A stretch of DNA of 64,000 nucleotides from a virus. Its lineage: Duplodnaviria > Caudoviricetes. This document shows, in pieces, positions 12,663-62,092 of the stretch (its first letter is position 1; each line of letters begins with the position of its first letter). The stretch covers positions 5,185 to 69,184 of IMG/VR virus record IMGVR_UViG_3300049142_000092; one strand, given 5' to 3'. Below the pieces are notes generated by a model. It was not told the DNA's origin and did no database searches. It saw nothing but the letters and a program-made list of their open reading frames with translations. A program made the translations under genes and the position numbers.

Positions 12663-13805
12663 ATGGGGCGACAGCCCCTCCCGATCGGCGCCCACGGCAA
12701 CATCAAAACCACCCCCGTCGGGCCGAAGCTGTGGCTCGCCAGGTGCCGCTACCGCGACCCCGACGGCGTCACCCGGCAGGTGAAACGCACCGGCCGCTCA
12801 AAGTCGGCGGCCGAGAACGAGCTCCGCAAAGCCCTCACCGAACGCAAACGCACCGCCGGCGCCACCATCACCGGCGACTCCCGCCTCGCCGACGCCGCCA
12901 CCAAGTGGTTCGTGCAGCGCCGCGCAGAGGTCGACGGCGGCGACCTCGCCCCCACCACCCTCGCCGTGTACGAGTCAGCGTGGACCCTGTACGTCGAGCC
13001 GGCACTCGGGCAGGTCCGGCTGCGTGAGTTCACCGTGGCCCTGTGCGAGGACTGGATCGTCAACCTGCGCCGCCGCAAAGGCCCCTCAGCCACCAAGTCG
13101 GCGCGGACCGTGCTGTCCGGGATCCTCGGCTACGCCGCCCGCCTCGGTGCCATCCACACCAACCCTGTGCGGGACCTCTCAAGGATCCCCGGCGGGAAAA
13201 AACAGCCCGTGCGGGCTCTCACCACAGAGGAGCGCCGGCAGTGGCTCGAGGCCATGGAAGCCGACGAGAAAGCCGCACGGTGGGACATCCCCGACCTCAC
13301 CCGGTTCATGCTCGCCACCGGCTGCCGCGTCGGCGAAGCCTTGGCCGTGTCATGGGATGAGGTCGACTTCGACCAGGCGACCGTCAACATCCGCTGGCGG
13401 CTCGTCCCCGTGAAGGGTGAAGGGATCCGGCGGGTGAAGGGCGCCAAGAGCGTCGCCGGGGAACGGGTGCTGCAGCTGCCCCGCTGGTGCGTCGACATGC
13501 TCATGCGCCGACGCATCGACCCCATGTCCGGGTACCCCGTGTTCCCCGACGGACTCGGCGGTTGGCGGTGGCCCACCAACGTGTTGAAGGTGCTGCGGCA
13601 GGCCCGCGACGACGCCGGCTTCGGATGGGTCACCTCGCACGTGTTCCGGAAGACGACCCTCACCGTGCTCGACGAGGCCGGGCTGACACCGCGGGTACTC
13701 GCCGACCAGGCAGGGCACTCGGATCCGTCGATGACGCAGCGGGTGTACATGGCGCGGAAGGTCGCGTCGGAGCAGGCGGCACAGGCGCTCGAGGATCTGC
13801 TGTAG
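12663..13805 (+). CDS. int: tyrosine integrase
   Basis: ATGCRVGEALA (Arg), KGAKS, TSHVFRKT (HxxR), AGHSDPSMTQRVY (His/Tyr). Confidence 0.97.
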   Translation: MGRQPLPIGAHGNIKTTPVGPKLWLARCRYRDPDGVTRQVKRTGRSKSAAENELRKALTERKRTAGATITGDSRLADAATKWFVQRRAEVDGGDLAPTTLAVYESAWTLYVEPALGQVRLREFTVALCEDWIVNLRRRKGPSATKSARTVLSGILGYAARLGAIHTNPVRDLSRIPGGKKQPVRALTTEERRQWLEAMEADEKAARWDIPDLTRFMLATGCRVGEALAVSWDEVDFDQATVNIRWRLVPVKGEGIRRVKGAKSVAGERVLQLPRWCVDMLMRRRIDPMSGYPVFPDGLGGWRWPTNVLKVLRQARDDAGFGWVTSHVFRKTTLTVLDEAGLTPRVLADQAGHSDPSMTQRVYMARKVASEQAAQALEDLL

Positions 13806-14673: not shown

Positions 14674-14932
14674 CAGCTCATTGCTCCTTTCAGGGCCCTA
14701 AGCGTGCCCTGATCTTGCCGGACCGATCTTTCGTGGAGCGTCTGGCCTGGTCATCGGTGGGGCGGGTGGGACTCGAACCCACGACCTGACGGTTTCTTAT
14801 CGACGCTGCCCGTTGGTTCCCAGTGCTGCCCGACAGGCCCCTTGAGCACCCTCTCCGCGAACCGATCTCGCCCGTTGATGCCAGGCGAGACCAGTTGCCG
14901 TTCGTACATTCCGTGCCCTAAAGGTGCCCTCA
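14639..14932. other. attP site (core plus arm-type integrase sites)
   Basis: tRNA 3'-half core at 14756-14794; G(T/G)GCCCTNA repeats at 14639, 14693, 14704 (left) and 14913, 14924 (right); both tandem pairs are 11 bp apart. Confidence 0.75.
14756..14794 (-). tRNA. 3' half of a tRNA gene only (att core); isoacceptor not assignable
   Basis: Minus strand AA CCGTC AGGTC GTGGG TTCGAGT CCCAC CCGCCCC A CC = anticodon 3' strand, variable loop, T-arm, acceptor 3' strand; no 5' half nearby. Confidence 0.85.
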
Positions 14933-15379
14933 GGAGACGCTGAGGCCCGGCGCCCACTCCTCGCGGTAGCCCGGCCGGTCCGCGTACGCAGACGCGAGCG
15001 GCCGTAGCACGTCAAGTTCCCATAGCTGCCGCACGCTCTCGACATGATCTCGAACCTCGTCGTCGACCGCGGTCGCCCCGAAGGCGAGAGCCGCCTCGTC
15101 CACAATCGCGCGCTTGGCCGCGACGTCGCGCAGCACACGCGCCGGGTCGTGACGGGCGATGTGGTCGGCAATTGGGGCGAGGACCTCGTGGGCCACAGAC
15201 CAGTAGTGTCCCGCCTTGTCTTCGGAAACGTGGCGCCGCTCGGGATCGTCGGCATACTGGTCCGCGGACCAGGTCCCAGGCTGCACTGCGTCCGGATGCA
15301 ACGCCGCCCACGCCACGCGCTCGTCCTCGTCCAGCTGCGCACGCAGCCAGGCCACCAGGCCGACGACATGCTCAGCCAC
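14930..15379 (-). CDS. DUF6221-family protein
   Basis: LVAWLRAQLDEDE...HIARHDPARVLRDVAAKRAI...LASAYADRPGYREEWAP. Confidence 0.85.
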   Translation of the reverse strand: MAEHVVGLVAWLRAQLDEDERVAWAALHPDAVQPGTWSADQYADDPERRHVSEDKAGHYWSVAHEVLAPIADHIARHDPARVLRDVAAKRAIVDEAALAFGATAVDDEVRDHVESVRQLWELDVLRPLASAYADRPGYREEWAPGLSVS

Positions 15380-15417
15380 AGTTCACCTCCGTGTCCGGCG
15401 CCCACTCGGCCCGGTAC
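15371..15417 (-). repeat. 47-bp imperfect inverted repeat, left copy
   Basis: Reverse complement matches 27301-27347 at 43/47 positions. Confidence 0.9.
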
Positions 15418-15872
15418 GAGTCGTGCCCAGCGTAGGGAAGAGCGAGCAGACGCATAGTGACGCACGGCCACTCCGGCTGCCAGGCGCAGTACGAGCAGCA
15501 GATGCAGTTGGGCAGCTGGAGATGCGGCCGGCTGTACTCGCGTGGCTGGTGCAGGTCGATGATGCGGCGTTTCGCCTGCACATCCGCGAGCACCCGCGCC
15601 GGATCCCACCGGGCAATGTGGTTTCGGTAGTTCTCTCCGTCGAAGTACATCTCGCCGCATCGTGCGACCAGGTTCGATCCGCCGTGTACGAGCAGCTCGC
15701 CATCCGACAGCTGCAGAGCCTCGGGATCGTCCGACGTCACGACCGCATAGTTGTACTCGTCGCCAACGTCGACAGCGGCAGTCCAAGAGGACTCACCGCG
15801 CTCGATGGCTTGAGCCGCCTGCTCGTCCTCGTCGAGGCGGGCCTTCAGGAAGGCCACCAGGTCATCAGTCAC
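15372..15872 (-). CDS. DUF6221-family protein (second copy)
   Basis: LVAFLKARLDEDE...HIARWDPARVLADVQAKRRI...PCVTMRLLALPYAGHDSYRAEWAP. Confidence 0.85.
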   Translation of the reverse strand: MTDDLVAFLKARLDEDEQAAQAIERGESSWTAAVDVGDEYNYAVVTSDDPEALQLSDGELLVHGGSNLVARCGEMYFDGENYRNHIARWDPARVLADVQAKRRIIDLHQPREYSRPHLQLPNCICCSYCAWQPEWPCVTMRLLALPYAGHDSYRAEWAPDTEVNCG

Positions 15873-16107
15873 GAGGTCCCCATGTCGGCTCGAACCCGTT
15901 GACGCCGAAGCCGATGCTGATCGTTGCGTCGTCGGGCAGCTCGTCACACGCAAGCTTGACCGAGTGCCAGGAGGTCAGATCGATCGGCCAGGCAGCTCGC
16001 CAGCTGTGCTTCCCGCACCTGTCCACGCCCTCGTAGACCAGTTCCAACGGGATGACGTCGTCGTCGACGAGGAGGCGCGCGTTCTTTGGCGGTACCGGCT
16101 CAGTCAT
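15865..16107 (-). CDS. hypothetical protein
   Basis: MTEPVPPKNARLLVDDDVIPLEL...; ATGA overlap with the Nudix gene. Confidence 0.6.
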   Translation of the reverse strand: MTEPVPPKNARLLVDDDVIPLELVYEGVDRCGKHSWRAAWPIDLTSWHSVKLACDELPDDATISIGFGVNGFEPTWGPRD

Positions 16108-16700
16108 GAGATAACCCGCCCGAGGTGTTCCCGGACTGGCTCGTACACGCCCGGCAGCAGGGTGTCGACCTCGGCGAGGGACAGCCAGCGGACCTCCGCG
16201 AGCTCGTCCTTGTCGCCCACGAAGACGTCCGTGCCCGCGACAGGGGTGCACGCCAGGTAGATCATCGTTCGGCCCGTCTTCGGGTGGACACGTCGGCCGA
16301 TCTCGTGGTGACCGGCGCGCACCTCGAGCCCCGTCTCTTCCTTCACCTCGCGCACGGCGGCGTCGACAGCGGACTCGCCGGGCTCGATCTCCCCCGCGAT
16401 GAACGTCCACGGCGGCTTGCCGTCGTTGCGCTTCCCCGCGAGCACGCCGCGGTGGCTGGTGACGATCGCCGCCACGACCGGCTGGTGCTCGGGGACAGCT
16501 GCGGGTTCGGGCACGCGGAACTCCTCCTCGTGGAGTCGAAGCTGACGGCGCACGTCGTTCAGGACCCACCGGGATTGACCCCTCGGTGTCACGAACGCGG
16601 GCCGGACTAGCCCGGCCCGCTGCCACCGCCACACGGTCGTCCGGCTGATGCCGAGCGCACGGGCAAGGGCGTTGCTCGTGAGGAACTCGGGGTCAGCCAC
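16104..16700 (-). CDS. HTH-Nudix hydrolase fusion (regulator)
   Basis: N-terminal ALARALGISRTTVWRW HTH; Nudix box variant AGEIEPGESAVDAAVREVKEETG; divergent from the mobilisation operon. Confidence 0.9.
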   Translation of the reverse strand: MADPEFLTSNALARALGISRTTVWRWQRAGLVRPAFVTPRGQSRWVLNDVRRQLRLHEEEFRVPEPAAVPEHQPVVAAIVTSHRGVLAGKRNDGKPPWTFIAGEIEPGESAVDAAVREVKEETGLEVRAGHHEIGRRVHPKTGRTMIYLACTPVAGTDVFVGDKDELAEVRWLSLAEVDTLLPGVYEPVREHLGRVIS

Positions 16701-16740
16701 CTCGTGAGCCTCCCAGAGACCGAGCAACGGATGCACTGGA

Positions 16741-16800
16741 GTGGAACGTATTGCAACGATCATCACCCTCCTCTACAGTCGTGGTGGAACAGATTGAAAC
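16741..16800. promoter_or_regulatory. 17-bp direct repeats in the divergent promoter (candidate operator)
   Basis: GTGGAACGTATTGCAAC (16741) and GTGGAACAGATTGAAAC (16784), 14/17 identical, 43 bp apart. Confidence 0.55.
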
Positions 16801-16815
16801 AGTTGGAGGCCGCAG

Positions 16816-17013
16816 ATGGCAAACACCCCCGCGAGCACCTGCTCCACCTGCAGCACGCCGGCGGGCCTCGGCGGCCACCCGCTGTACCCGGTCGTTGACG
16901 CCACCGGCCGCACGGAGCGGTGCTTCGCGTGCCTGCTCACGCTGGTGGCTCGGGTCCGCTCGAGCGAGGACGTGACCGTGTTCCTGGCCAGCACCACCGC
17001 GCTACCGACCTGA
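16816..17013 (+). CDS. small zinc-finger protein
   Basis: CSTC...CFAC; RBS ggagg. Confidence 0.65.
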   Translation: MANTPASTCSTCSTPAGLGGHPLYPVVDATGRTERCFACLLTLVARVRSSEDVTVFLASTTALPT

Positions 17014-17097
17014 CAACGAAGACGGCCCGGCAAGGAGCACCACCTCCCGCCGGGCCTAACCACCTCCACCCGGTCTCCACCAAGAAGGAAGGGCTCC

Positions 17098-17394
17098 ATG
17101 CAGTCTGTCAGTCCGCCCAGGGCACCTGCCACGGAGCAGCCCACACAGCCCCTGCCGATCGGCGCGACGCTGCCGCCAAGGCACAGCGACTTCAAGGAGT
17201 TCGGGCTGTGGCTGTTCCCCGGCGCACCCGTCGCCGCGGCCGCGGTCGGGATCCCTCTCCACGACCTGTGGATCTACACCGACGACGCGATGTTCGCGTT
17301 CGCGGTGCTCGGGCTCGGCGGGCTGCTCGTCGCCGCCCTGGTCGTGTTCCTGTTCGCCCGCGCCGTCAGCCGCGGGGAGGACGGGCGATCCTGA
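17098..17394 (+). CDS. small membrane protein
   Basis: Two hydrophobic segments; TGATG overlap with the next gene. Confidence 0.7.
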   Translation: MQSVSPPRAPATEQPTQPLPIGATLPPRHSDFKEFGLWLFPGAPVAAAAVGIPLHDLWIYTDDAMFAFAVLGLGGLLVAALVVFLFARAVSRGEDGRS

Positions 17395-18074
17395 TGGCCA
17401 CCTTCTTCCGCATCGCCGGCCTCGTCGTCGTCCTCGCCGCAGCCGCCGTCCTGTCGTTCGCCGCGCTCAGGGACTTGGCCATCGCGGTGCGGGTCCACGA
17501 ACAGTTGGCGTTCCTCCTGCCTATCGCAGTGGACGCCGGCGCGGCCGTGTCGTGCACGGTGTGGCTGTCCCCCGCCGTCCAACAGGACGCCCGCAGGTTC
17601 GCGTGCTGGCTGACGTGGCTGCTCCTCGGCGCCACCGTCATCGGCAACGCCGCCCAGCAGGGCATGCACGCCCACGGCATCACCCCGCCATGGCAGGTCG
17701 CCGTGCTCGTGGGTGCCATTTCCCCGGCCATCGTCGGAGGGGTCGTCCACCTGCTCGTCCTCGTCAACCGCAGCACCGCCGGCCCGAAGCTTGAGGACGA
17801 GCCCGTCGAAGAACTATCGCAGCTCGACGATCGCGGCCTGTCCCGGTTCTGGGAGACCGCTCCCGCCACCGAGGTCGTGGAGCGCCCCGTCTCGAAGCCC
17901 CCACGCAAGTCTCTTCCAGCCGCTCCGGTGGACATCGACCCCGAACTCGAGAAGCGGGCCCGGGAACTCATCGCCAACGGCAGCGGGCGGGTGGTGCTGC
18001 AGCAGGAACTGCGCATCTCCGAGTACCGCGCCAAGCAGCTCGTGAAGACCCTCACGAACGGACAGCCCTCATGA
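17394..18074 (+). CDS. DUF2637 / SpdA-like membrane protein
   Basis: AAAVLSFAALRDLA...LLPIAVDAG...TVIGNA... four TM segments, C-terminal HTH-like LQQELRISEYRAKQL. Confidence 0.75.
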   Translation: MATFFRIAGLVVVLAAAAVLSFAALRDLAIAVRVHEQLAFLLPIAVDAGAAVSCTVWLSPAVQQDARRFACWLTWLLLGATVIGNAAQQGMHAHGITPPWQVAVLVGAISPAIVGGVVHLLVLVNRSTAGPKLEDEPVEELSQLDDRGLSRFWETAPATEVVERPVSKPPRKSLPAAPVDIDPELEKRARELIANGSGRVVLQQELRISEYRAKQLVKTLTNGQPS

Positions 18075-18772
18075 CGACGCGCATCTGCAGCGTCGACGGC
18101 TGCGGACGACGCCACAGCGCCCACGGCTACTGCAGCACGCACTGCAACAGGTGGCGCCAGACGGGCAGCCCTCAGTCGGATCGACCGATCGCTGTGCGAG
18201 GCACCCCGAGCACATACGGCGCCGTTCACCTTCGCCTCCAGGCAGTACGAGGTTCGGCCTCCGCCTACCTGTGCTCCCACTGCGCAGCCTCGGCGCAGGA
18301 GTGGGCCTACGACGGGCTCGACCCGAACGCCCGCATAGACCCCAAAGGACGCGGAGCATTCACCCCTGACCTGAGCCACTACTTCCCTCTGTGCTGCTCA
18401 TGCCACCGGATCTACGACCGAGCACAACGACCGCCAGCGCCGCCGCCGTGTGACGTTGAGACCGCAGCCGCCCTCTACCGCGACATGAGCGCTCAGGAGG
18501 TGGCTGCCCGGCTCGGCGTGACCGGCGCAACCGTGATCACTCACTTGCGCAGGGCTGGCGTCGCCATCCGGACGCGTGGAACCCCGCCAGGCGGCCGTCA
18601 GTCGCGATTCGACGTCGACCGCTGCGTTGCGCTCTACCGCTCTGGTCTGAGCGCCGCCGCGATTGCCCTGAAGGTTGGCGCTGGGCGCACGACAGTCAAA
18701 CGACTCCTGAAGCAGGCCGGCGTTGAGATGCGCCCGAGCTCACTACCACGGCAGAGGAAGGGATCTCGATGA
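18071..18772 (+). CDS. HNH-type homing endonuclease-like protein with tandem C-terminal HTHs
   Basis: CSVDGC...GYCSTH; YGAVHLRL...C.HC...WAYD...PLCCSCH; two HTH motifs. Confidence 0.65.
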   Translation: MTTRICSVDGCGRRHSAHGYCSTHCNRWRQTGSPQSDRPIAVRGTPSTYGAVHLRLQAVRGSASAYLCSHCAASAQEWAYDGLDPNARIDPKGRGAFTPDLSHYFPLCCSCHRIYDRAQRPPAPPPCDVETAAALYRDMSAQEVAARLGVTGATVITHLRRAGVAIRTRGTPPGGRQSRFDVDRCVALYRSGLSAAAIALKVGAGRTTVKRLLKQAGVEMRPSSLPRQRKGSR

Positions 18773-20475
18773 CCCGCATGCGTCGGCTTCTCCGCATCGT
18801 TGCCGTGGCACTTGCGGTGACGGCGGTGCTGTGGGCCGTAGCGCCCCGCGCGACCGCGACCGTACTCCTTCTCGTAGGAGCTGCGGTCGGGCTCTGGGCG
18901 GTGCACCACTTCGGTGGGACTGCGCGCACCGTGATCCGCTGGGGTGAGCGAGCCCGGCGTCGCTCTGGGGTCGCCACCCCGTGGCAGATCTTCCGAACCA
19001 CATCCTGGTGGGCAATGCATCGGCGGGCGACCGCAGTCCGCCCATCCCTCCAGGACGTCGGATGGTGGCGTCGGTGGCGCACATCCACGTGGGAGCTCGG
19101 CGTTCAGCTGTGCCGGGCGGGCGGCATGCGAATCTGGGCAGCGGCTGAGGACGTGGTCCTCGTATTCGGAGGCCCCCGCACCGGAAAGACCGCATGGCTC
19201 GCCATCGCCGCCATCTTCGCGGCCGGCGCCGTGGTCATGACTTCCACTCGCCTCGACCTCATCAAGCTCACCCGGAAGTGGCGGGAGATGCGCGGTCTCC
19301 CCACGTGGGTGTTCAACCCGGGAGGTCTTGGCGACCTCCCATCCGACATCACGTTCGAACCCACCCACGGGTGCGACGACCCCGCGGTTGCGGTGGAGCG
19401 TGCCGCCGACATGATCCCCGTGAAGGAGGACGACCGGGGCGAGTCCGCCAGCTGGGACACCCGCGCCCAGGAGGTGTACGCGGCGTTCCTCCACGCGGCC
19501 GGGCTCTCCCACGGCACCCGAGACTCCCACGACATCCTCCGGTGGTCGGCCAACCCCGAACTCGCCGCCGAGGAGCTCCAGCTTCTGCTGCAGGACTCGC
19601 GGGTGCCTTCGTTCGCGTCTGCGGTCGAGCAGTTCATCGGGCTCGCCCCGCAGACCCGGTCCAGCATCGTCAACAGCATCATGCCGGCGCTGAAGTGGCT
19701 GAACTCCGAGAGCGCCGTCGCGGCCACCAAGGGCGGCAACCGGTTCGACGTCGGCGAACTCATCCGCGCCCGCGGCACCGTGTACATGCTCGGCCGGCAC
19801 GAGGCCCACACCGCGCCCCTGCTGGCCGCGCTCAACGGGTACATCGCACGCGAGGCCCGCAGGCTTGCCGCCCTTCAGCGGGACGGCCGGCTCGACCCAC
19901 CGCTCGGTCTTCACCTTGATGAGGCCGCTCGGGTGTCCCCCGTCCCGCTGCCTGACTGGTCCGGTGACGCCGGCGGGTCCGGGATCCAGCTGATCTGCGC
20001 GTTCCAGTCGCTCGCGGACGTGCGGGAGCGATGGGGCACCAACGGTGCCGCGAAGGTCCTCAACAACGCCGGGTCGGTGATGCTGTTCGGAGGGACGAAG
20101 GACCCGGTTGACCTCGAGGCGTGGGCGAAGCTTGCCGGCGACCGGGACGAGCCTGTCAAGACCCGCAACGGCGACGGCAAGGTCACGTCGACCTCTTCCC
20201 GGAAGGCGCCGGTTCTCGCTCCCGCGAAGCTGTCGAATCTCCCGGCGAAGCGGGTGGTTGTTTATACCCGCGGGATGGACCCGGTTGTGGGTCGCGCGCC
20301 TCGGGTGTGGGAGCGGCGGGTGCAGCGGGCCGCCCGGCGGCTCGCCCGGGTCTCCCGACTAGCGACCACCCACCCAGTCGCTCGCCCGCTCTCGGCTCCC
20401 GCACCCACGCCCGTTGCGTCGCCCACGCCCGTGGGTGCTGCGCCCGGACGGGAGCTGACCGATGTCGCCCACTGA
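18769..20475 (+). CDS. type IV coupling protein (VirD4/TraG-TraD family)
   Basis: Two N-terminal TMs; Walker A GGPRTGKT; Walker B LHLDEAA; GIQLICAFQSLADVRERWG...NNAG...LFGG TraD-type C-terminal motif. Confidence 0.9.
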   Translation: MTRMRRLLRIVAVALAVTAVLWAVAPRATATVLLLVGAAVGLWAVHHFGGTARTVIRWGERARRRSGVATPWQIFRTTSWWAMHRRATAVRPSLQDVGWWRRWRTSTWELGVQLCRAGGMRIWAAAEDVVLVFGGPRTGKTAWLAIAAIFAAGAVVMTSTRLDLIKLTRKWREMRGLPTWVFNPGGLGDLPSDITFEPTHGCDDPAVAVERAADMIPVKEDDRGESASWDTRAQEVYAAFLHAAGLSHGTRDSHDILRWSANPELAAEELQLLLQDSRVPSFASAVEQFIGLAPQTRSSIVNSIMPALKWLNSESAVAATKGGNRFDVGELIRARGTVYMLGRHEAHTAPLLAALNGYIAREARRLAALQRDGRLDPPLGLHLDEAARVSPVPLPDWSGDAGGSGIQLICAFQSLADVRERWGTNGAAKVLNNAGSVMLFGGTKDPVDLEAWAKLAGDRDEPVKTRNGDGKVTSTSSRKAPVLAPAKLSNLPAKRVVVYTRGMDPVVGRAPRVWERRVQRAARRLARVSRLATTHPVARPLSAPAPTPVASPTPVGAAPGRELTDVAH

Positions 20476-21154
20476 CCCGCCCGCCGGCCCTCCTCCGGGG
20501 GAGCCCACCCAGCCGCTCGACGCCCAGGCGATCGGGCGGGAGCTCGACCGCATCTCCCGCTGGGTGCAGAAGCAAGCCGACGAGCGGGAGTGGACCGACG
20601 AACTCCGGAAGATGTGGGACGCCACGCGCGAGTGCTTCGACGGCCTCTCGGCGCTTGCCGCCGCCACCAAGCCGGCCCCCAGTCGGGCGTGGCTGCTGCA
20701 GGTTGGCGAGGAGCCGGAGAAGCTCTCCGAACGCCTCACCAGCCTCGTCGAGTGGCTGGACAAGGTGTTCCTGCGCTACCCGGCCGCACAGCTGCCTTCG
20801 TGCTGGTCACGGCACCCGTGGCTGGTTGAAGAGCTGCTGTGGCTGCAGGCCTACCACAGCGACGCGTATGGGCCGCGTGGGTCGTCGACCGCGCAGGGCA
20901 TGTGGCACGACCAGTCCCTGCCTCGGCTGCTGGAGCGGATGAAGCACGTCACCGGATGTGATCTTTCGAAGCACGTTCCTGGTGGTCAGGAGGCTAAGCC
21001 GCCACTCGCGGCACCTCTCGCAGGGCACATCAAGGAGATCGCGGAGGCCTGGTCAACCACGGGTCTGCCGCCTGAGCCGTCGACCGAGCAGCTCGAGGAA
21101 GCGCGCAAGCACCGAGAGCTCAAGCTCCGCCGAAACACCTCCAACACCAACTGA
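20462..21154 (+). CDS. DUF4913-like protein
   Basis: WLDKVFLRY...LPSCWSRHPWLVEELLWL...W motif, which I associate with actinobacterial T4CP/relaxase loci. Confidence 0.6.
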   Translation: MSPTDPPAGPPPGEPTQPLDAQAIGRELDRISRWVQKQADEREWTDELRKMWDATRECFDGLSALAAATKPAPSRAWLLQVGEEPEKLSERLTSLVEWLDKVFLRYPAAQLPSCWSRHPWLVEELLWLQAYHSDAYGPRGSSTAQGMWHDQSLPRLLERMKHVTGCDLSKHVPGGQEAKPPLAAPLAGHIKEIAEAWSTTGLPPEPSTEQLEEARKHRELKLRRNTSNTN

Positions 21155-21224
21155 TCCCCATCTACCTAGATCCACTCACCCCCAAGATCCATCTACTCAA
21201 GATCACCACTCACCTCAAGATCCC
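21153..21224 (+). repeat. strand-biased GATC-anchored tandem repeats (candidate oriT/iteron region)
   Basis: Two ~33-bp units gatccccatctacctagatccactcacccccaa / gatccatctactcaagatcaccactcacctcaa plus a fifth GATC; G-poor and AT-enriched relative to the window. Confidence 0.7.
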
Positions 21225-21303
21225 TAACTGCCCTAAGAACAAGCAGCCACACCGATGCATTAGCCAATCCAGCGGTGTGACCAGCACAGGAAGGAAGATC
21301 CAC

Positions 21304-21645
21304 ATGGCCGATCTGAGCGATCCGAGGATCGCCGCTGAGGTCGAGGCGGCCTACGCCGAACGCCAGGCCCAGCTCGCGAACTCGCCGAGCTACCAGGCGT
21401 ACCAGCAGAACAGCCAGCGACTCACCGAGCGTGACCTCGCATTCAACGGCCTGCTCAACAAGCACACCTTCGCGGATCCGCGGCTCTCGACCCCGGACCA
21501 GATTGGTGCGGCGCATGAACGTGCCGCGCAACTGGCCGCCCAGGCCAACGGACGTCCCTTCACTCCAACCGAACAGGCCGAGTGGACCACCGCGCTCGGC
21601 ACGCAGGCCTCCCACTACGCAGCAGAGGAAGGACGGACCCGATGA
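21304..21645 (+). CDS. hypothetical protein
   Basis: RBS aggaag; MADLSDPRIAAEVEAAY... Confidence 0.7.
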   Translation: MADLSDPRIAAEVEAAYAERQAQLANSPSYQAYQQNSQRLTERDLAFNGLLNKHTFADPRLSTPDQIGAAHERAAQLAAQANGRPFTPTEQAEWTTALGTQASHYAAEEGRTR

Positions 21646-21806
21646 GCCGCCAGATGCCTTGGTTCCGCGACTACGACCGCGACCTGATGGAGGAGCGAGC
21701 ACTCCCCGACCCGGAAGTTGTTGACCGCATCGAGCGGCTGGCGGCCCAGGAGTGTGGCTCCTGGGAAGCCCCCGCTCAGTCCGATGAGGACGGGCGGGCC
21801 CGCTGA
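21642..21806 (+). CDS. small hypothetical protein
   Basis: ATGA overlap; MSRQMPWFRDYDRD... Confidence 0.55.
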   Translation: MSRQMPWFRDYDRDLMEERALPDPEVVDRIERLAAQECGSWEAPAQSDEDGRAR

Positions 21807-22006
21807 TGGACGACGGCTACACGCGGTGGGGCTGCCAAGACACCTGGGGCGCCCAAACCCACCCGATGGGTTACCGCCGTGACATGGCCCAGCAGAAGGC
21901 CCGGGAGGCGATCGCGGGCGTCTGCAACCTGCTGACGCCCGCGGCGTGGGAGTTCACAGCGCCGCCGAACTCCCGGCTGCAGGCCTACGCGCGGGCGCGG
22001 GCCTAA
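21806..22006 (+). CDS. small hypothetical protein
   Basis: TGATG overlap; directly upstream of the relaxase. Confidence 0.5.
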   Translation: MDDGYTRWGCQDTWGAQTHPMGYRRDMAQQKAREAIAGVCNLLTPAAWEFTAPPNSRLQAYARARA

Positions 22007-22012
22007 CCTCCC

Positions 22013-25000
22013 ATGTTCAAGGTGACCAAGGGCTACTCGGTGGAGTACCTGACCGGGCCGGTGTCGACCGGGCGGGAGGGCTATTACACGGGTGCCGTGG
22101 CCGCGGGTGAACCGCCCGGCGTGTGGCATGGGCGGGGCGCTGAGGCGCTCGGGCTGGCGGGCGAGGTCGACTCCGATCTGATGGAGGCGATCTACGCCCG
22201 CCTGCTCGACCCCCGCGACGAGGCCACCCATTCGCGGGCGAGATGGGCGGAAGCCGCAGCGTTGGCTCCCGCCCACCGCCGCTACCGGTCACCGGACGAG
22301 CTGTATCAGGAAGCGATCGCGAAAGAACCCGACGCCGGTCCGGAGCGACGCGCCGAAATGTTGGCGGCGGCCGAGCGGAAATCGCAGCAGGCGGTGGCGT
22401 TCTGGGATGCCACGTTCTCGGTGCCGAAGTCCGTCACCGTCCTCGCGGTCGCGTTCGAGCGGGCCACGGACACCGCCGCCAGTGCAGGACGGCACGAAGA
22501 GGCGGCGTCGTGGCGGGCCATGCTCGGCGCGGTTGAGGCCGCAGCGATGGCTGGTGCGTCGGCGAGCGTCGACTATCTCGAGGCCAACGCGTACGCCCGG
22601 GTTGGGAACCACTCGAGCGGCGCTGGGCGGTGGATGGAACAGAAGGGGTTCATAGTCGCCCAGTTCCTGCAGCACGACTCCCGCGACCGAGACCCGCAGC
22701 TGCACGTCCACCAGGCGATCCTGAACGCTCACGAACGTGCCGACGGGAAGTGGGGGCGCCTCGACGGGGCGGCGTTGACGCTGCACAAGTGGGCCGCCGC
22801 CGCTGTGGGTGAGCGGGTCATGGAGGCCGAGCTCACCCGGATGCTCGGGGTGCGGATGGTGACCCGTAAGGACGGTGTCGCCCGGGAGGTCGACGGTGTC
22901 CCTCAGCAGTTGATGGATCTGTTCTCGAAGCGGTCCCGCGCGGTCACCGCGAAGACCGCGGAGTTGATCGCCGCCTATGAGGCGCAGCACGGCCGGGCGG
23001 CGTCGGTGTTGGAGAGGCAGTACATCGCCGAGCAGGCCACGCTTCTCACCCGGAAGGGAAAGTCTCACACCGGGGAGACCGCGCAGGAGCGGCTGGACCG
23101 GTGGGAGCGTGAGGCCCGCACGAAGATGGCTGGCGGGTTGGAGCAGGTCGCCCACGACGTCCTCGCGGTGAAGGGACAAGCCCGGGCCGATGAGGTGTCA
23201 CCAGCGCAGGTGATCAGTAAGGCGTTGTGGGAGGTCGGGAAGAACGAGCAGGTGTGGACCCGCTCCGACCTGATCTTCGCGATTTCGAATGCGCTCCCCG
23301 CGAACCTCGGTGTACCCGCCGACCAAATCCCCGCGATGTTGGAGCGGCTTGCCGACAAAGCCCTCGTCGAAGCGAAGGTGGTTGTCGCCACCGAGGCGGT
23401 GGATGGGCTGCCGGCCGAGTTCCGCCTCGTCGGCGGGCTGTCCGCGTTCCAGCGTCCCGGCGCCGCCCGGTACGCCACGGTCGGGCAGATCGCCGAAGAA
23501 CGGGTCACCGAGCAGGCCGCTGTCCGGACCGGCGCCGCGAAGCTAACCGACGCGCAGGCGGATGCGTTCATCCGCCGCTACAACGAGGCCGCCGACGAGC
23601 CGTTGGGCGCGGACAAGGAGGCCGCGATTCGCGGTGTCCTCACCTCCGGCGCCTACGTCGAAACCATCTCGGCTGCCGCCGGCACCGGGAAGTCGACAAC
23701 CGTTGGGCTGATCGCGGAAGCATGGGCTGAGCACGGGCACCGCACCTTCGGCCTGGCCGCATCCCAGAACGCCGCCGACGTGATGGCCGAGGAAGGCGTG
23801 ACCGCGTTCAACTTCGACCGGTGGCGGCTCGCGGTCGAGAACGACGACTCCCTGCAGCTCCGCGCCGGCGACATGGTCGTGGTCGATGAGGCCGGCATGG
23901 CATCCACCCGCGACATGGCCGATCTGGTGCAACGCTGCGAAGAAGTCGGGGCGAAACTCCTCCCAGTCGGTGACGAACGGCAGATGCGATCGATCGAAGC
24001 CGGTGGCGTGTTCGCCGACCTGCGGCGCACGGCGCGCTCCTACGAGTTGACGCAGGTGTGGCGGTTCCAGGAGGAGTGGGAACGCGCGGCGTCACTGCTG
24101 TGGCGTGAAGGTGATGTCGCCGCGCTCGACGCTTACGACAAGCACGGCCGGTTACGTGGCTGCGGCACGGCCGAGCAGGCCGAACACAAGGCCGGTCAGG
24201 CGTGGCTGGCAGACACCCTCGCCGGGAAGAAGTCCCTGCTGCTGGTGCGGAGCAACGACCAGGCAGCGCGGGTGAACGCCCAGCTGCGCGCCGAGTTGGT
24301 GCGACTCGGGAAGGTGTCTGAGCAGGGTGTGGTGCTCGGCAAGGAGAACACCGTCGCAGGGGTCGGCGATCTGGTGCAGGCCCGCCACAACCACTGGCAC
24401 CTGTTCCGAGGCAACAGCCGGCCACTGATCAACCGGCAGACCTACCGGGTGACCGAGCTTCTCCCCGACGGTGGGCTGAAGGTCGAGAACAGCAAGGGTG
24501 TCTCCCTAACCGTGCCCGCCGACTACGTCGAGAAGCACCTGACCCTGGGCTACGCCTCCACCTTGCACGCCGCGCAGGGTCGCACCGTCGACACTGGGCA
24601 CGACCTGACCGGCACGTACGTCGGAATGACCCGCGGGCGGGAGTCGAACACGGCATGGGTGACCACTAAGGCGCTGTCCTCGGATGCACCTGTCGGTGAA
24701 GCCCAGGAGGTAGAGGAACGCACCGCGAAGGCTGTCCTCGCGGACACATTCAAGAACGCGGAGGAGGAGCGGGGGGCGATCGCCCAGCGCGAGCAGGCCA
24801 TCGAGGACGAAAAATCCACCTTCCGGAACGTCGACCGGTTGCTGGTCGGTATCGACAAGGCAACCGCTGGCAACACCGCCACCAGGCTGGACTACCTCAC
24901 CGCCGAAGGGATCATCACCCCCGAGCAGCGCGAAGCCCTCGCTGCGGACCAGGCGATGAGCGCGGTGGAGCGGCTGCTCCGCAACGCCGAGGTCGCCGGA

Positions 25001-26230
25001 CACAACCCTGAGTCGGTCCTCCGCGGCGCATTGGAGGGGAAGTCCCTGGCCGGTGCGGAGAGGGCAGCGCAGGTTTTGCACTCCCGCATCCGCAACACCC
25101 TCGGGAAGCAGATCCCGAGGATCACCTCCTACCGGGACCTCATCCCCGCCGGGGTGAGCGACGTGTGGCGTGGCTGGCTCGAGAAGCAAGCCGACAAGGC
25201 CGATGAACGGCGCCACGAGTTGGGCGCCAGAGTGGCTGAGGAGAAGCCGTCATGGGCGATGGAAACCCTCGGCCCGGTTCCGGAGGATCCGCTGCGGCGG
25301 GCAGTGTGGGAGTCCCGCGCCGGTTGGGCTGCCGCGTCCCGTGAGGGCGCCGAGTACACCGACGAGCACGATCCGCTGGGCCCTGCGCCTGCCGCGGGGT
25401 TGGCGGAGAAGCGCGCCATCTGGGCCACCGCCCACGACGCTCTCGGCCTGCCAGATGTGGGCCCTGAGGAGGCGATGCAGTCCGACGGGCAGCTGTTGGC
25501 GCGGGTGGCGGCGTGGGAGCGGGAGCAGCTGTGGGCGCCCCGCTATGTAGCGGACGAGCTTGCTGCCACATCCGAGCAGTTGGCGGACCGGCGTAGCCAG
25601 GTGGGGTTGTGGCGGGCGCACGCCGAAACCCTCGACGGCGACGAAAAGCAGGGCGTCCTCGAGGCGGCGGCGAAGGCTGAACGGGAGGCCGCGGAGCTTG
25701 AGCAGCTGAAGCTCAACCTTGAGGTCGCGGACAAGGAACGGACCGCATGGTTCCTCCACACCGCCGCCACCCGCGACTCCGGTGAACGAGCCAAGGCGGA
25801 GTTGGCCCGCCGCGAAGTCGACCTGGCCCACCCAGTGGATCGGACCACGATGGCCGAGTGGCTGGCGGCGGAGGAAGCCGACCGGGCGTCCGGGGACACG
25901 CACCGGCCGATCCATGAGGAAGACCTCGCCGACGAGCAGGTCGCTGACCTGCCCGCGCCGCACCGTCCCCTTGAGACCGCGGTCGCGGACATCCGCGACG
26001 TAGCGGTGGCGGACCCGACGGAACACGACCCACGCACCCGACGCGAAGTCCCGGCCGCCGATGTTGTGGCCGAGGCCGTGCAACGGGCACGCGAATCGCT
26101 CCTCGAGCGGATGAGCCGAGACCACGCCGACGAGGCGCGGCTGGCGGAAGAAGAGGCGGACCGGCAAACCCACTGGCTGGCCGCACCAGAACTGGCTGAC
26201 GAGCAAGCGCGAGTGAGGGAGATGTCATGA
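22013..26230 (+). CDS. MobF (TrwC-like) relaxase-helicase
   Basis: GYY catalytic tyrosines, PPGVWHGRGAEALGL, DATFSVPKSV, HDSRDRDPQLHVH (HUH motif), SF1 helicase AAAGTGKST / VVDEAGM / VGDERQ / GYASTLHAAQGRT. Confidence 0.97.
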   Translation: MFKVTKGYSVEYLTGPVSTGREGYYTGAVAAGEPPGVWHGRGAEALGLAGEVDSDLMEAIYARLLDPRDEATHSRARWAEAAALAPAHRRYRSPDELYQEAIAKEPDAGPERRAEMLAAAERKSQQAVAFWDATFSVPKSVTVLAVAFERATDTAASAGRHEEAASWRAMLGAVEAAAMAGASASVDYLEANAYARVGNHSSGAGRWMEQKGFIVAQFLQHDSRDRDPQLHVHQAILNAHERADGKWGRLDGAALTLHKWAAAAVGERVMEAELTRMLGVRMVTRKDGVAREVDGVPQQLMDLFSKRSRAVTAKTAELIAAYEAQHGRAASVLERQYIAEQATLLTRKGKSHTGETAQERLDRWEREARTKMAGGLEQVAHDVLAVKGQARADEVSPAQVISKALWEVGKNEQVWTRSDLIFAISNALPANLGVPADQIPAMLERLADKALVEAKVVVATEAVDGLPAEFRLVGGLSAFQRPGAARYATVGQIAEERVTEQAAVRTGAAKLTDAQADAFIRRYNEAADEPLGADKEAAIRGVLTSGAYVETISAAAGTGKSTTVGLIAEAWAEHGHRTFGLAASQNAADVMAEEGVTAFNFDRWRLAVENDDSLQLRAGDMVVVDEAGMASTRDMADLVQRCEEVGAKLLPVGDERQMRSIEAGGVFADLRRTARSYELTQVWRFQEEWERAASLLWREGDVAALDAYDKHGRLRGCGTAEQAEHKAGQAWLADTLAGKKSLLLVRSNDQAARVNAQLRAELVRLGKVSEQGVVLGKENTVAGVGDLVQARHNHWHLFRGNSRPLINRQTYRVTELLPDGGLKVENSKGVSLTVPADYVEKHLTLGYASTLHAAQGRTVDTGHDLTGTYVGMTRGRESNTAWVTTKALSSDAPVGEAQEVEERTAKAVLADTFKNAEEERGAIAQREQAIEDEKSTFRNVDRLLVGIDKATAGNTATRLDYLTAEGIITPEQREALAADQAMSAVERLLRNAEVAGHNPESVLRGALEGKSLAGAERAAQVLHSRIRNTLGKQIPRITSYRDLIPAGVSDVWRGWLEKQADKADERRHELGARVAEEKPSWAMETLGPVPEDPLRRAVWESRAGWAAASREGAEYTDEHDPLGPAPAAGLAEKRAIWATAHDALGLPDVGPEEAMQSDGQLLARVAAWEREQLWAPRYVADELAATSEQLADRRSQVGLWRAHAETLDGDEKQGVLEAAAKAEREAAELEQLKLNLEVADKERTAWFLHTAATRDSGERAKAELARREVDLAHPVDRTTMAEWLAAEEADRASGDTHRPIHEEDLADEQVADLPAPHRPLETAVADIRDVAVADPTEHDPRTRREVPAADVVAEAVQRARESLLERMSRDHADEARLAEEEADRQTHWLAAPELADEQARVREMS

Positions 26231-26553
26231 GCAACGACGCAGCCGACCTTGGGCTGAAGCTGTCACAGCTCCCTCACGACCACGAACTCGTCGTGGCTGC
26301 TCGGCTCGCTATGGAGCTCCGGGCAGACCGGATGCAGTCCTACGACGACTACGTGGGCGGTCGGTTCCACCGCACCCACGAACTGCCCGACGAGTACACG
26401 GAACTGCAGAAGCTGCGGTACCCACCGAACGGGGACCGCGACGAGTGGGTGCGCAACGGGAACCCCGTGACGATCCCGGCGCAGCGGCAGCCTACGGAGT
26501 GGACACCAGCACCCGCGGAGGACGCTGGCGCCGCACGAGTGAGGGGACGCTAG
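26227..26553 (+). CDS. hypothetical protein
   Basis: ATGA overlap with the relaxase stop. Confidence 0.65.
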   Translation: MSNDAADLGLKLSQLPHDHELVVAARLAMELRADRMQSYDDYVGGRFHRTHELPDEYTELQKLRYPPNGDRDEWVRNGNPVTIPAQRQPTEWTPAPAEDAGAARVRGR

Positions 26554-26960
26554 TGCGGCACCAGCGAAGCGAGACGCCGCCACCGAGCGACCTGCCCGCG
26601 GGCACAGTTCTCGGCGTCCCGGCGCTGCTCCGGCATCCCCGTCTTCCCGGCAAGCAGCTCGGCGGTGACTTGGTCAACCGATACGACTGTGCCGTCGGGG
26701 TTGCGTCGGGGCAGCTCAATCGGGGGGACGTCGGTCATCCCGAGGAGCCACGCGAGGGTGCTGGTGTCGTCATCGACGACCCGCGCCAGGACAGCTTCCT
26801 GGCTGGGGGTCTCTCGGGTGACCCAGTTGAGGATGGCGCACACCTCGCTGTGCAGGGACGCCCTGCCCACCTCTTCCGCCACCGCGTGGGCGATCCAGTG
26901 GCAGTCGGCGACCTCCCGGGCCGCCGGTGCAACCCAGACCGGTATCAGCGCCTCCCCCAT
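26550..26960 (-). CDS. hypothetical protein
   Basis: ORF track; convergent with the mob operon. Confidence 0.6.
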   Translation of the reverse strand: MGEALIPVWVAPAAREVADCHWIAHAVAEEVGRASLHSEVCAILNWVTRETPSQEAVLARVVDDDTSTLAWLLGMTDVPPIELPRRNPDGTVVSVDQVTAELLAGKTGMPEQRRDAENCARGQVARWRRLASLVPH

Positions 26961-27003
26961 GACTTGCAGTATGCGGCCGCGGTCTGACAGCGGCCAAACA
27001 GGT

Positions 27004-27021
27004 AGCAGGATTTCACCTGCT
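27004..27021. promoter_or_regulatory. palindrome AGCAGG-N6-CCTGCT in a divergent intergenic region
   Basis: Perfect 6-bp arms; left arm plus AT equals the AGCAGGAT unit of the early promoters. Confidence 0.45.
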
Positions 27022-27044
27022 CAACGCAATATGAAGGGACCGTC

Positions 27045-27346
27045 ATGTCCGAGTCTGAGGCGAGGGTGTCGGGGGACCTCGCTCGCCTCATGGCCAACCA
27101 CTGTGACCTTGAGCGGCTCCTGGTTGAGCACGCTCCTGACGAGAAGGGCCGCTGCGCCGCTTGCCGGTCGATAGGGTGCTCCACGTACCCGGCGGTGCTG
27201 GCAGCGGTGCAGCTACGGGCAAAGCGGGATGCCAAGTTCGGCAAGCTGCACGTGGAAGGATCCTCGGCGTGATTGACGACCTGGTGGTCTTCCGAGACAG
27301 GTACCAGGCCGGCTGGGCGCCGGACACGGAGGTGAACGGTGGCTGA
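27045..27346 (+). pseudogene. degenerate DUF6221-like remnant (76-aa ORF plus out-of-frame tail)
   Basis: EH...CAAC...C segment followed in another frame by RYQAGWAPDTEVNGG, matching the 15372 gene end YRAEWAPDTEVNCG. Confidence 0.4.
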
Positions 27347-27347
27347 G
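27301..27347 (+). repeat. 47-bp imperfect inverted repeat, right copy
   Basis: gtaccaggccggctgggcgccggacacggaggtgaacggtggctgag vs the reverse complement of 15371-15417. Confidence 0.9.
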
Positions 27348-27650
27348 ACTGAGGATGGCGTCTCCCGCGAGACTGGGTTCCGGATCCCACACCAGCACTG
27401 CGGCCAATGCGGGCGACCGGACACGACGCGCCAGCGCTACTCCAACGAGCGTGTCGAACTGCTCGCCACTACGCCATGCTGTGGCGCGCTGCCCTGCTAC
27501 GGATATGTTGCGTCCACGCCGTGGGTCGGACATCGAACCTGGACTCTGGTGTGGGCCTGCTGCATAGGTGAAGCGGATCGGCGACTCGGTGAGCAGACCA
27601 GCCTGATCCTTCCATCTAAGGAAGGCGGTGCATGGTGGGCCAAGGCATGA
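27339..27650 (+). CDS. Cys-containing hypothetical protein
   Basis: RBS gaggtg; CGQC...CC... Confidence 0.55.
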   Translation: MAETEDGVSRETGFRIPHQHCGQCGRPDTTRQRYSNERVELLATTPCCGALPCYGYVASTPWVGHRTWTLVWACCIGEADRRLGEQTSLILPSKEGGAWWAKA

Positions 27651-27907
27651 CCGCCCAGGATCTCGCCGCCGATCTCGGCATGCTGCAGCCCGACGACATC
27701 CAGTGGCTGCTGTCCGAGCACCTCGGTGTGGATCTGCACGACGAGGTGGTCCCGGTTGAGTGGTGCGTCGAGGTGCGGTGGATCTTGAACCCGAACGGGG
27801 AACGCACCGCACCAGCGCCCTTCTTCTGGACAGGGCACCCACTGTCGTGGGCTGGAGACTCGCCGACGGCCGGTGAGGGCGACTACGAGGGGATGTTCGA
27901 CTGGTGA
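27632..27907 (+). CDS. hypothetical protein
   Basis: ORF track; RBS aaggaagg. Confidence 0.6.
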   Translation: MVGQGMTAQDLAADLGMLQPDDIQWLLSEHLGVDLHDEVVPVEWCVEVRWILNPNGERTAPAPFFWTGHPLSWAGDSPTAGEGDYEGMFDW

Positions 27908-28278
27908 GCCTCGTCAACCTGACTCCGCATCCAGTGCGGGTCTACGCCGTCGACACCCCCGACCGGATAGGCGACCTCGACGACGGCTTGCTCTTCGTCT
28001 TCCCGCCGTCGGGGAAAGTCGCCCGAATCGCGATGATCGACCTCGGGACGGCCGGGCACGCGTACGACGAAGCGTCGGGCTACTCGACCTGGATCGACTG
28101 GCAGCAGTTCGGCCAGTGTCACGACCTCCCGCGGCCGGAGCACGGAACGAACTTCATCGTCTCCCTGATCGTAGCCCGCGACCAGACCAACCGAACCGAT
28201 CTGATCTTCCCGATCTCCGAAGTACGGAACACCCAAGGCACCGTCGTCGGATGCCGAGGGTTCGGTCGCGTCTGCTGA
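27904..28278 (+). CDS. conserved-looking hypothetical protein (NLTPH ... GC motif)
   Basis: LVNLTPHPVRV...PPSG..AR...LP.P..GT..IVS...R.DL..P...R...G...GC. Confidence 0.75.
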   Translation: MSLVNLTPHPVRVYAVDTPDRIGDLDDGLLFVFPPSGKVARIAMIDLGTAGHAYDEASGYSTWIDWQQFGQCHDLPRPEHGTNFIVSLIVARDQTNRTDLIFPISEVRNTQGTVVGCRGFGRVC

Positions 28279-28292
28279 TCCTGAAAGCACGA

Positions 28293-28332
28293 AAGAGGCC
28301 CTGCCCCACCCGAAGGTGAGACAGGGCCTCTT
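28293..28332. terminator. bidirectional hairpin terminator
   Basis: AAGAGGCCCTG ... CAGGGCCTCTT 11-bp arms between convergent genes. Confidence 0.8.
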
Positions 28333-28375
28333 CGTCTGCCCGGCGTGACGGGGATCAGACCGGGCGAGCTTGAGG

Positions 28376-28723
28376 TCAGACGTTGACGCTCGGCGCTGGC
28401 ACCGGCGCAACAACGCGGTCGCGGACGACGTACCCGGCGATGATCCCGATCGGCACCATCAACGCGGCCTGCTGCTCGGCCGACCAGTCCAGGCCGAGGC
28501 CGACGAACAGGGCGATCACGGCCTGGGCCGCGCCGGTGAGGGCGGGCAGCAGGTTGTCGGCCTTGACCAGGAACGCGGTAACGGCACCGGCCACGGCGAC
28601 CGCGGCCGCGTTGAGCAGGGCCTGCATGGTCGGGTCGTCCACGAACCAGAACGCGGCCACGGCCTGCACGATCGGGGCCAGCAAGCTGATGTACAGCAGC
28701 GCGGGCTCTCTACGGATGGACAT
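28376..28723 (-). CDS. holin
   Basis: MSIRREPALL...; four TM-like segments; immediately downstream of the endolysin. Confidence 0.8.
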   Translation of the reverse strand: MSIRREPALLYISLLAPIVQAVAAFWFVDDPTMQALLNAAAVAVAGAVTAFLVKADNLLPALTGAAQAVIALFVGLGLDWSAEQQAALMVPIGIIAGYVVRDRVVAPVPAPSVNV

Positions 28724-28778
28724 GGTCTCCCCTTCGGGGTCGGCCGGGACGTCGTCCCGGAGGCTGTGGCGGCCCACG

Positions 28779-61933: not shown

Positions 61934-62092
61934 ATGGGTAGACCACGGGACGCCGAGCACGCCGAGGACTGGCTGTACGAGCGGGCAGAAGAGGCCGCAG
62001 CCGTCGGCCTGCCGCTGGACAAGGCACTGCAGGCCGTACGGGACGGGTACTCCAGCATCGAGGCTGACCGCACGATCGCCGAGGATCCCTAG
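61934..62092 (+). CDS. small antisense ORF within the packaging operon
   Basis: MGRPRDAEHAEDWLYERAEEAAAVG...; exactly fills the gap and abuts the terL stop. Confidence 0.45.
   Translation: MGRPRDAEHAEDWLYERAEEAAAVGLPLDKALQAVRDGYSSIEADRTIAEDP

Follow-up and report, generated by a model that had tools for sequence, protein, structure and literature searches.

A MobF relaxase, a VirD4-type coupling protein and a candidate oriT in a lineage of temperate phages: a possible route to conjugative mobilisation

Introduction

Mobilisable plasmids and integrative mobilisable elements (IMEs) with a relaxase and a type IV coupling protein (T4CP) of their own are among the closest described systems to the locus reported here, a module at positions 16104-26553 of a 64,000-nt window (the whole stretch of DNA that was analysed) which corresponds to bases 5185-69184 of the 69,184-bp linear virus record IMGVR_UViG_3300049142_000092. 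Like these elements, the module combines a relaxase, a T4CP and an oriT-like (candidate) site, and lacks genes for VirB4 and mating-pair formation (MPF). Its nearest cellular homologues (52-53% identity) are found in islands of this kind on Pseudonocardia chromosomes, with the same gene order. Unlike them, it comes without an integrase, a replication gene or att sites of its own, and it is carried by a full tailed phage that encodes packaging, capsid, tail and lysis functions.

With TrwC and TrwB of plasmid R388 the module shares a two-domain relaxase-helicase with a tyrosine pair and a three-histidine motif, and a membrane-anchored coupling protein of the hexameric type. In R388, oriT lies upstream of the relaxase operon and has an inverted repeat near the presumed nick; the candidate oriT of the module is likewise located upstream of the relaxase gene and contains an inverted repeat close to the putative nick. 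The similarity is at the family level only. The relaxase described here has an extra C-terminal region of ~500 amino acids, and neither a ribbon-helix-helix (RHH) protein of the TrwA type nor a Trw (VirB-type) channel was recognised.

Actinomycete integrative and conjugative elements (AICEs) transfer double-stranded DNA by means of the FtsK-like protein TraB and do without a relaxase. The module resembles AICEs of the pSAM2 type in its actinomycete host range, in the Nudix gene (with a GntR-type regulator in relatives) that heads the transfer genes, and in its small membrane proteins. It differs from them in having a relaxase and in that no FtsK_SpoIIIE domain was matched in the 69-kb record.

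For phages, published work describes streptococcal prophages that are mobilised by the conjugation systems of integrative and conjugative elements (ICEs) (PMC12282955, which cites Huang et al. 2023), and streptococcal phage-ICE tandems in which relaxase, VirD4 and VirB4/type IV secretion system belong to a separate ICE beside the phage (PMC13651849). Movement of a prophage by conjugation, shown there, is what we propose here. In contrast to the tandems, relaxase, T4CP and candidate oriT are internal to the phage genome in our case, and no ICE is attached. Published reviews report no phage-relaxase hybrid of this kind and record only the ICE-driven mobilisation of streptococcal prophages (PMC12282955).

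Among 50,697 phage records, the sole clear match of the relaxase was in 'Mycobacterium phage Adler' (KF981876; UNVERIFIED_ORG, 95.7 kb, circular), where a putative relaxase and a VirD4-like protein are annotated ~4 kb apart. Identity amounts to 24% over 53% of the relaxase, gene order differs, the phage status is unverified, and the VirD4-like gene went undetected with the T4CP described here. The latter had no match among the same 50,697 records, nor in IMG/VR when exact peptide patterns were used. Megablast of the module against phage and plasmid collections gave no match, and literature on DUF2637 and on the relaxase of Adler yielded nothing useful. What the present analysis adds to the first-pass annotation of the locus includes an attP that mimics tRNA-Met, a replication initiator of the phage's own, the lineage-wide occurrence of the module, and a conserved oriT candidate.

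Results

A relaxase-helicase, a coupling protein and a candidate oriT

The module consists of a divergent HTH-Nudix gene and a co-oriented operon on the plus strand (Table 1). Taken together, the candidate oriT, the MobF relaxase-helicase, the membrane-anchored T4CP, a DUF2637 protein, a protein of ~215-230 amino acids and p136 make up a complete DNA-processing (Dtr) module. We hold with moderate confidence that its carrier is a mobilisable temperate phage equipped with a conjugative-type DNA-processing module.

The relaxase scored above curated cut-offs, with 162.5 bits for Pfam TrwC (cut-off 25) and 154 bits for the NCBIfam MobF model NF041492 (cut-off 100). Residues Y24/Y25 and the motif H221-D222...H231xH233 were invariant in 14 homologues. 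The same applied to GxGK560 and D625E626 in the helicase part, an SF1B (RecD-like) helicase (AAA_30, 177 bits) with conserved motifs GTGKS (557-561) and DEAG (625-628). The extra C-terminal region is conserved as well. PHROGs families matched only the helicase part (Dda-like phage helicases), and none of them matched the relaxase domain or the T4CP. The latter reached 71.2 bits for T4SS-DNA_transf (cut-off 20.1) and 65.6 bits for TraG-D_C (cut-off 22), with GPRTGKT as Walker A and HLDEA as Walker B motif, and a Kyte-Doolittle scan placed hydrophobic segments within residues 4-50 which form an N-terminal membrane anchor.

VirB4, AAA_10 and CagE_TrbE_VirB had no match anywhere in the 69-kb record, whose sole integrase is that of the phage. 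Plasmid replication or partition genes did not turn up among ~60 open reading frames (ORFs) scanned, a survey that included no dedicated Rep/Par search. The first-pass annotation had described a full-length relaxase with YY, HUH and helicase motifs intact, a T4CP with intact Walker A and B motifs, and a module devoid of VirB4 or MPF genes, an integrase of its own and a plasmid rep gene; the conserved motifs, the curated cut-offs and the profile searches bear this description out.

The candidate oriT occupies a gap with a lower GC content than its surroundings. Four or five AAGATC[CA] direct repeats (21158-21223) are followed by a hairpin, CACACCG...CGGTGTG (21248-21279), which has a value of -9.3 kcal/mol (z -2.9) as single-stranded DNA. 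The gap is 87% identical to that of the related phage contig G001, versus ~71% for the flanking coding DNA. When 11 loci from phages and islands were aligned, CACACC was invariant, and a GCAT..CGATCC..GGTG core and the upstream AAGATC repeats were conserved; in the 64-kb window the motif occurs once. Phages and Pseudonocardia islands alike have kept it, with relaxases of no more than 48-54% identity. Conservation of a non-coding site across relaxases of ~50% identity is as expected of a relaxase recognition or nick site, and the motif may thus be taken as a strong candidate for oriT.

No frameshifts or stops were present in the module. Comparison of the window with G001 gave dN/dS values of 0.13 for the relaxase, 0.19 for p108, 0.26 for the Nudix gene, 0.38 for p230 and 0.40 for the T4CP, and of about 0.38-0.39 for the sortase and tail genes of the backbone, all of them approximate since dS is near saturation. 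All tested module genes are under purifying selection.

Related phages and chromosomal islands

Protein searches yielded 745 relatives of the relaxase. A search of actinobacterial prophages for co-occurrence of terL, MobF and T4CP had been suggested in the first-pass annotation. Diverged relatives have the same architecture: the module occupies the same place in at least seven diverged phage contigs, which differ in head modules and integrase types. G001, an IMG/VR contig of 72 kb (93% complete), encodes a relaxase 88% identical to that of the window and is collinear with it in the early genes, the Nudix gene, the module, and the lysis and tail-tip genes. The terminase, portal, protease, capsid and tape-measure genes of G001 are unrelated to those of the window, and the pair represents a clear case of modular mosaicism. 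The module was located between integrase and lysis genes in the following contigs: (i) G002 (55 kb, CheckV 100%), with terL and a relaxase of 66% identity; (ii) L010 (70%), with a serine integrase, sortase and tail genes; (iii) G003 (64%), with an HK97 capsid; (iv) the P0015 contig (69.7 kb; 60%), with a serine integrase and a CHAP lysin; (v) L012 (54%), with a lysin, a tyrosine integrase and RecT; (vi) L020 (52%), with a CI/Cro-like pair and a serine integrase. G001, G002, G003, L010, L012 and P0015 have the module in the same position, yet their terL, portal and capsid families differ, and their integrases are of the tyrosine or the serine type.

A FastTree phylogeny of 120 relaxases was rooted on one distant partial outgroup, which leaves the root unsure. 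In this tree, a split of 34 rows (support 95) comprised eight checked phage contexts and zero genomes of cultured isolates, and the named Pseudonocardia isolates were all in the other large clade. Judged by these comparisons, the module is a long-kept feature of the phage lineage, as opposed to an IME inserted recently into a single phage.

On the chromosomes of P. halophobica, P. parietis and P. broussonetiae, the gene order is again HTH_17/WhiB protein, DUF2637, T4CP, a ~210-aa protein and relaxase (52-53% identity). These genes are, in P. halophobica and P. parietis, part of islands that also contain Prim-Pol, DUF3987, integrases and GntR regulators; in P. broussonetiae they adjoin a Nudix gene. 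Neither phage genes nor VirB4 were found within 10 kb of the module in the Pseudonocardia islands. These island relatives possess Prim-Pol/DUF3987 and integrase genes of their own, and the module there represents the transfer part and not the replication part. The core common to phages and islands comprises DUF2637, T4CP, the ~215-aa protein, the relaxase and, weakly, p136. The VirB4-less core and the same oriT-like motif are common in islands of Pseudonocardiaceae (L008, L009, L021).

Two Pseudonocardia genomes contained four to six T4CP loci each versus one AAA_10 ORF each, a ratio that fits several hitchers sharing one helper and a VirB4-independent mechanism equally well. The AAA_10 ORF of P. 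broussonetiae (944 aa; L031, G008:C1:1829000-1848999) is located ~2.5 kb from an NlpC/P60 hydrolase gene and adjoins the dnaK-grpE-dnaJ operon, and its GC content at third codon positions (GC3) is core-like. The ORF may mark a VirB4-type locus on the chromosome.

An explanation that we regard as possible, though unlikely, is that the module serves phage DNA metabolism. The relaxase would then nick its site for rolling-circle replication or for genome processing or recircularisation, and phage DNA would be anchored, or moved within the cell or through the septa of hyphae, by the T4CP-like ATPase and its membrane partners. HUH chemistry is common to relaxases and rolling-circle Rep proteins, and a role of this type would also suit a relaxase that is the best-conserved shared protein, matches PHROGs through its Dda-like helicase part only and is encoded on a record without channel genes; yet the early operon of the phage already provides a replication initiator, SSB, ERF and RusA, and the module is located outside this operon, on the opposite strand, in an accessory slot by attP. 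The island core, moreover, coexists with separate Prim-Pol/DUF3987 replication genes, and a membrane-anchored T4CP of the VirD4 type has no known replication role. The combination of an intact and selected module with a cis site, the separate replication of the phage and the replication genes of the island relatives favour DNA transfer.

Position of the module in the phage genome

The window represents a siphovirus-type temperate phage with a tRNA-Met gene as its integration site; the host probably belongs to the Pseudonocardiaceae or is another, related actinomycete of high GC content. CheckV completeness of the record, which is linear in topology, was 89%. GC content is ~69% across the whole window, that of the module being indistinguishable from the backbone. 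Virion genes (terL, portal, protease, major capsid, tape measure, tail) and a holin gene were recognised with PHROGs (1e-14 to 1e-128), and a terS-like ORF is located upstream of terL. The left arm contains an early operon on the minus strand with genes for RusA, a replication-initiation protein, SSB, ERF and DUF5131. The presence of an integrase and an attP argues for integration as opposed to extrachromosomal lysogeny in the manner of a phage-plasmid. With integrase, attP, holin and virion genes in place, the original description of a temperate phage carrying the module between lysis cassette and attP holds.

The attP core matched 141 of the 151 Pseudonocardiaceae genomes searched, at 90-98% identity; six of the 151 are unpublished (G131, G070, G095, G046, G137, G012), and all six are included in the tally of 141. 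Its identification with tRNA-Met comes from two genomes, G146 and G089, in which the match is within tRNA-Met(CAT). As the tRNA-Met core is kept across the whole family Pseudonocardiaceae, the attP core does not discriminate the host. Direct repeats of the att type, which might mark the ends of an IME, were not found at the flanks of the module.

On the side that faces the module, attP is flanked by two tandem DUF6221 genes on the minus strand (14930-15953). Their junction (15371-15422) forms a 52-nt inverted repeat (88% complementary) with a remnant beyond the module (27296-27347), and in G001, L007 and L010 the DUF6221 gene is located on the far side of the module. This arrangement suggests that DUF6221 copies recombined around the module.

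Actinophages often keep defence genes in the slot between attP and the lysis genes, and in pSAM2 the Nudix protein Pif confers transfer immunity. A module in this lysogenic-conversion slot, headed by a Nudix gene, could therefore be imagined to act against competitors, by titrating or hijacking the channels of plasmids or ICEs or by exclusion or immunity exerted with the Nudix protein in the lysogen. For such a function neither a conserved oriT-like site in cis on the phage nor a full-length helicase domain under strong constraint is needed, and we consider it improbable.

Table 1. Features of the window, with positions, strands and supporting matches.
Feature	Position	Strand	Evidence and remarks
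Replication-initiation protein	1731-2552	minus	phrog_2447 4e-45
Phage tyrosine integrase	12663-13805	+	Pfam Phage_integrase 3.7e-16
attP core	~14755-14795	minus	~40 nt, reverse complement of tRNA-Met 3' end (T-arm and acceptor stem)
HTH-Nudix	16104-16766	minus	Pfam NUDIX 5.4e-20, HTH_17 5e-05; 70% identical in G001
Small Cys-rich protein, 65 aa	16816-17013	+	weak DUF6510 match; conserved in G001, L010
98-aa protein with one C-terminal hydrophobic segment	17098-17394	+	hydropathy; conserved in G001, L007, L010
DUF2637 membrane protein, core component	17391-18074	+	Pfam DUF2637 7.4e-11; several hydrophobic segments
HNH-type zinc-finger/double-HTH protein, 233 aa	18071-18772	+	phrog_4160 2.5e-26, HNH endonuclease PHROGs, HTH_7/HTH_38
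VirD4/TraG-type T4CP, core component	18769-20475	+	T4SS-DNA_transf 1e-19, TraG-D_C 5e-18, TrwB_AAD_bind
p230, 230 aa, core component	20462-21154	+	directly after T4CP gene
Candidate oriT	21155-21303	+	149-bp gap 3' of p230 gene; repeats and hairpin
Small ORF, 113 aa	21304-21645	+	GC3 frame; starts just after oriT candidate
Small ORF	21582-21806	+	between oriT candidate and relaxase
Small ORF, 66 aa	21806-22006	+	just upstream of relaxase; 47-70% identical in G001, L007, L010, L011
MobF relaxase-helicase, 1405 aa	22013-26230	+	TrwC 2e-47, AAA_30 4e-52
p108, 108 aa	26227-26553	+	translationally coupled to relaxase; 79% identical in G001, 72% in L010
p136, 136 aa, convergent	26550-26960	minus	29-77% identical in 7 loci including island L009
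Holin-like gene	28376-28936	minus	lysis region
Sortase	30643-31248	minus	Pfam Sortase 7e-20; among tail and lysis genes
Tape measure	47826-52220	minus	PHROGs; large tail proteins also on minus strand
terL	62089-63525	minus	PHROGs; followed by portal, protease, major capsid
terS-like ORF	upstream of terL	minus	right end of window

Other genes of the module and its surroundings

Searches with Pfam, NCBIfam and PHROGs located every gene that had been listed for the region in the first-pass annotation. The HTH-Nudix protein is probably a regulator of the module or an immunity factor. The DUF2637 protein was found in both the phage and the island versions of the module.

The gene that follows the T4CP gene had been labelled DUF4913-like. 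The 230-aa protein itself, p230, is present, while the DUF4913 label corresponds to a weak Atlas lead (score 0.88, TM 0.36-0.48); no match to p230 was found in Pfam, NCBIfam or PHROGs, and its AlphaFold model, of mediocre quality (pLDDT 67.6), had no Foldseek match in the PDB at E <= 0.001. Residues C114/H118/C166/H171 are invariant among homologues, and in 10 of the 11 loci a homologue was encoded directly 3' of the T4CP gene; in L011 the contig starts just upstream of the homologue, so that no T4CP gene is seen. The 113-aa ORF has its 24 N-terminal amino acids and its C-terminus in common with G001 and differs in the middle, and the 66-aa ORF is specific to the phage clade.

The 233-aa protein combines a Cys/His N-terminus of the HNH zinc-finger type with two HTH motifs. 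Its gene was absent from G001 and from every other locus examined and looks, by this distribution, like a later insertion. L010 has a NUMOD4/HNH_3 gene at a different spot of the operon; both genes look like insertions of the homing-endonuclease type.

That a homing-type gene has been inserted in the operon, that the core is common to chromosomal islands and that one relative in the mainly phage-borne clade has no phage genes nearby could all be explained if the transfer genes of a mobilisable island had been captured by recombination and were carried as passive cargo without benefit to the phage. Cargo of this sort would hardly keep its position in phages with relaxases 52-70% identical and with differing head modules and integrases, nor would it be expected to show purifying selection on all tested genes, freedom from frameshifts and stops and a lack of flanking att-like direct repeats. 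We judge this explanation to be quite improbable.

Outside the module, a sortase gene, which is unusual in a phage, is conserved in the related phages G001, L007, L010 and L011 (46-58% identity). The convergent p124 and holin genes are separated by a strong 18-bp inverted repeat (28293-28332), probably a bidirectional terminator that closes the accessory region.

Contiguity and abundance in the source data

Logan contigs served as an independent assembly from the single run with this DNA, a soil metagenome that is possibly the source of the record. One Logan contig of 13,630 nt covers positions 15694-29323 with zero differences and bridges both junctions of the module. Its depth was 171x, and that of neighbouring contigs 163-176x. 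Unitig breaks coincided with the tRNA-like attP core and the duplicated DUF6221 genes. Of the pieces listed, those contigs with only the short attP or DUF6221 cores in common had depths of 2-15x. The phage DNA would thus be far more abundant than any chromosome with that tRNA core, which suggests phage replication or free phage in the sample. The run also contains a 16.7-kb 'skip' joint, which was disregarded because it had only 21 nt on one side.

The chimeric join that the first-pass annotation had named as a refuting outcome was not seen, both junctions being spanned at backbone depth. Although the record is derived from a metagenome and present in a single run, the probability that a phage contig was wrongly joined to a contig of a conjugative element is negligible, given an independent contig set that bridges both junctions with no differences and at uniform depth, and the same synteny in IMG/VR, JGI, ENA and Logan contigs of other samples.

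Discussion

Two possibilities had been raised for this locus at the outset, namely that the phage genome has a second, conjugative route of transfer or that it carries an IME. The module and its position in a phage stand; the phrase 'carries an IME' is less apt, as there are no flanking repeats and no second integrase. According to the model that we favour, that of a mobilisable temperate phage, the relaxase would nick the conserved CACACC...GCAT site in the lysogen or in the excised circle and would join the 5' end covalently via Tyr24/25, and its SF1B helicase would unwind the strand. A T4CP hexamer would then pump this single strand, covering the whole phage genome and bound to the relaxase, into a neighbouring cell. 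There, the relaxase would reclose the strand, the complement would be made, and the phage integrase would insert the circle at tRNA-Met.

As the phage has neither VirB4 nor channel genes, the channel must come from elsewhere or be formed by an unrecognised apparatus. It might be provided by a co-resident conjugative element, or else a minimal apparatus could be made up of the conserved membrane partners. In the latter case, the core of DUF2637, T4CP, the Cys/His ~215-aa protein, MobF, p136 and oriT might constitute a self-sufficient minimal machine for single-strand conjugation in mycelial actinomycetes, an idea to which we attach a rather low probability.

Several points weigh against mobilisation by conjugation. 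Transfer is inferred, no channel is encoded in the 69-kb record, and the putative nick site is inferred from conservation alone. The sole listed run with this DNA consists of soil-metagenome DNA, and none is on record as RNA. With its 69 kb, the genome is large, though not unusual, for conjugative transfer, and conjugation would benefit a phage whose donor is lysed only where the module is active during lysogeny. Finally, P0072, a member of the mainly phage-borne 34-row clade, shows no phage genes within 10 kb, which implies that the module moves between element types and that its association with phages is not exclusive.

If the phage is indeed mobilisable, it would have a second, non-lytic and receptor-independent way of spreading by cell contact, which has been shown for no phage so far. 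It could escape from receptor-based host range and from abortive or lytic costs, and the prophage could move between cells that are resistant to infection. Chromosomal DNA next to the tRNA-Met site might be dragged along in an Hfr-like manner. Should the core work without a helper, the phages would be conjugative in the full sense, able to pass their genome from hypha to hypha unaided. The analysis also brings to light a VirB4-less relaxase/T4CP core that is widespread in Pseudonocardiaceae; its mechanism of transfer appears to be undescribed, and the conserved oriT motif offers an immediate biochemical handle. Phages and conjugative elements are usually treated as separate routes of horizontal transfer, a divide that would be blurred by a phage lineage which keeps relaxase, T4CP and oriT under selection.

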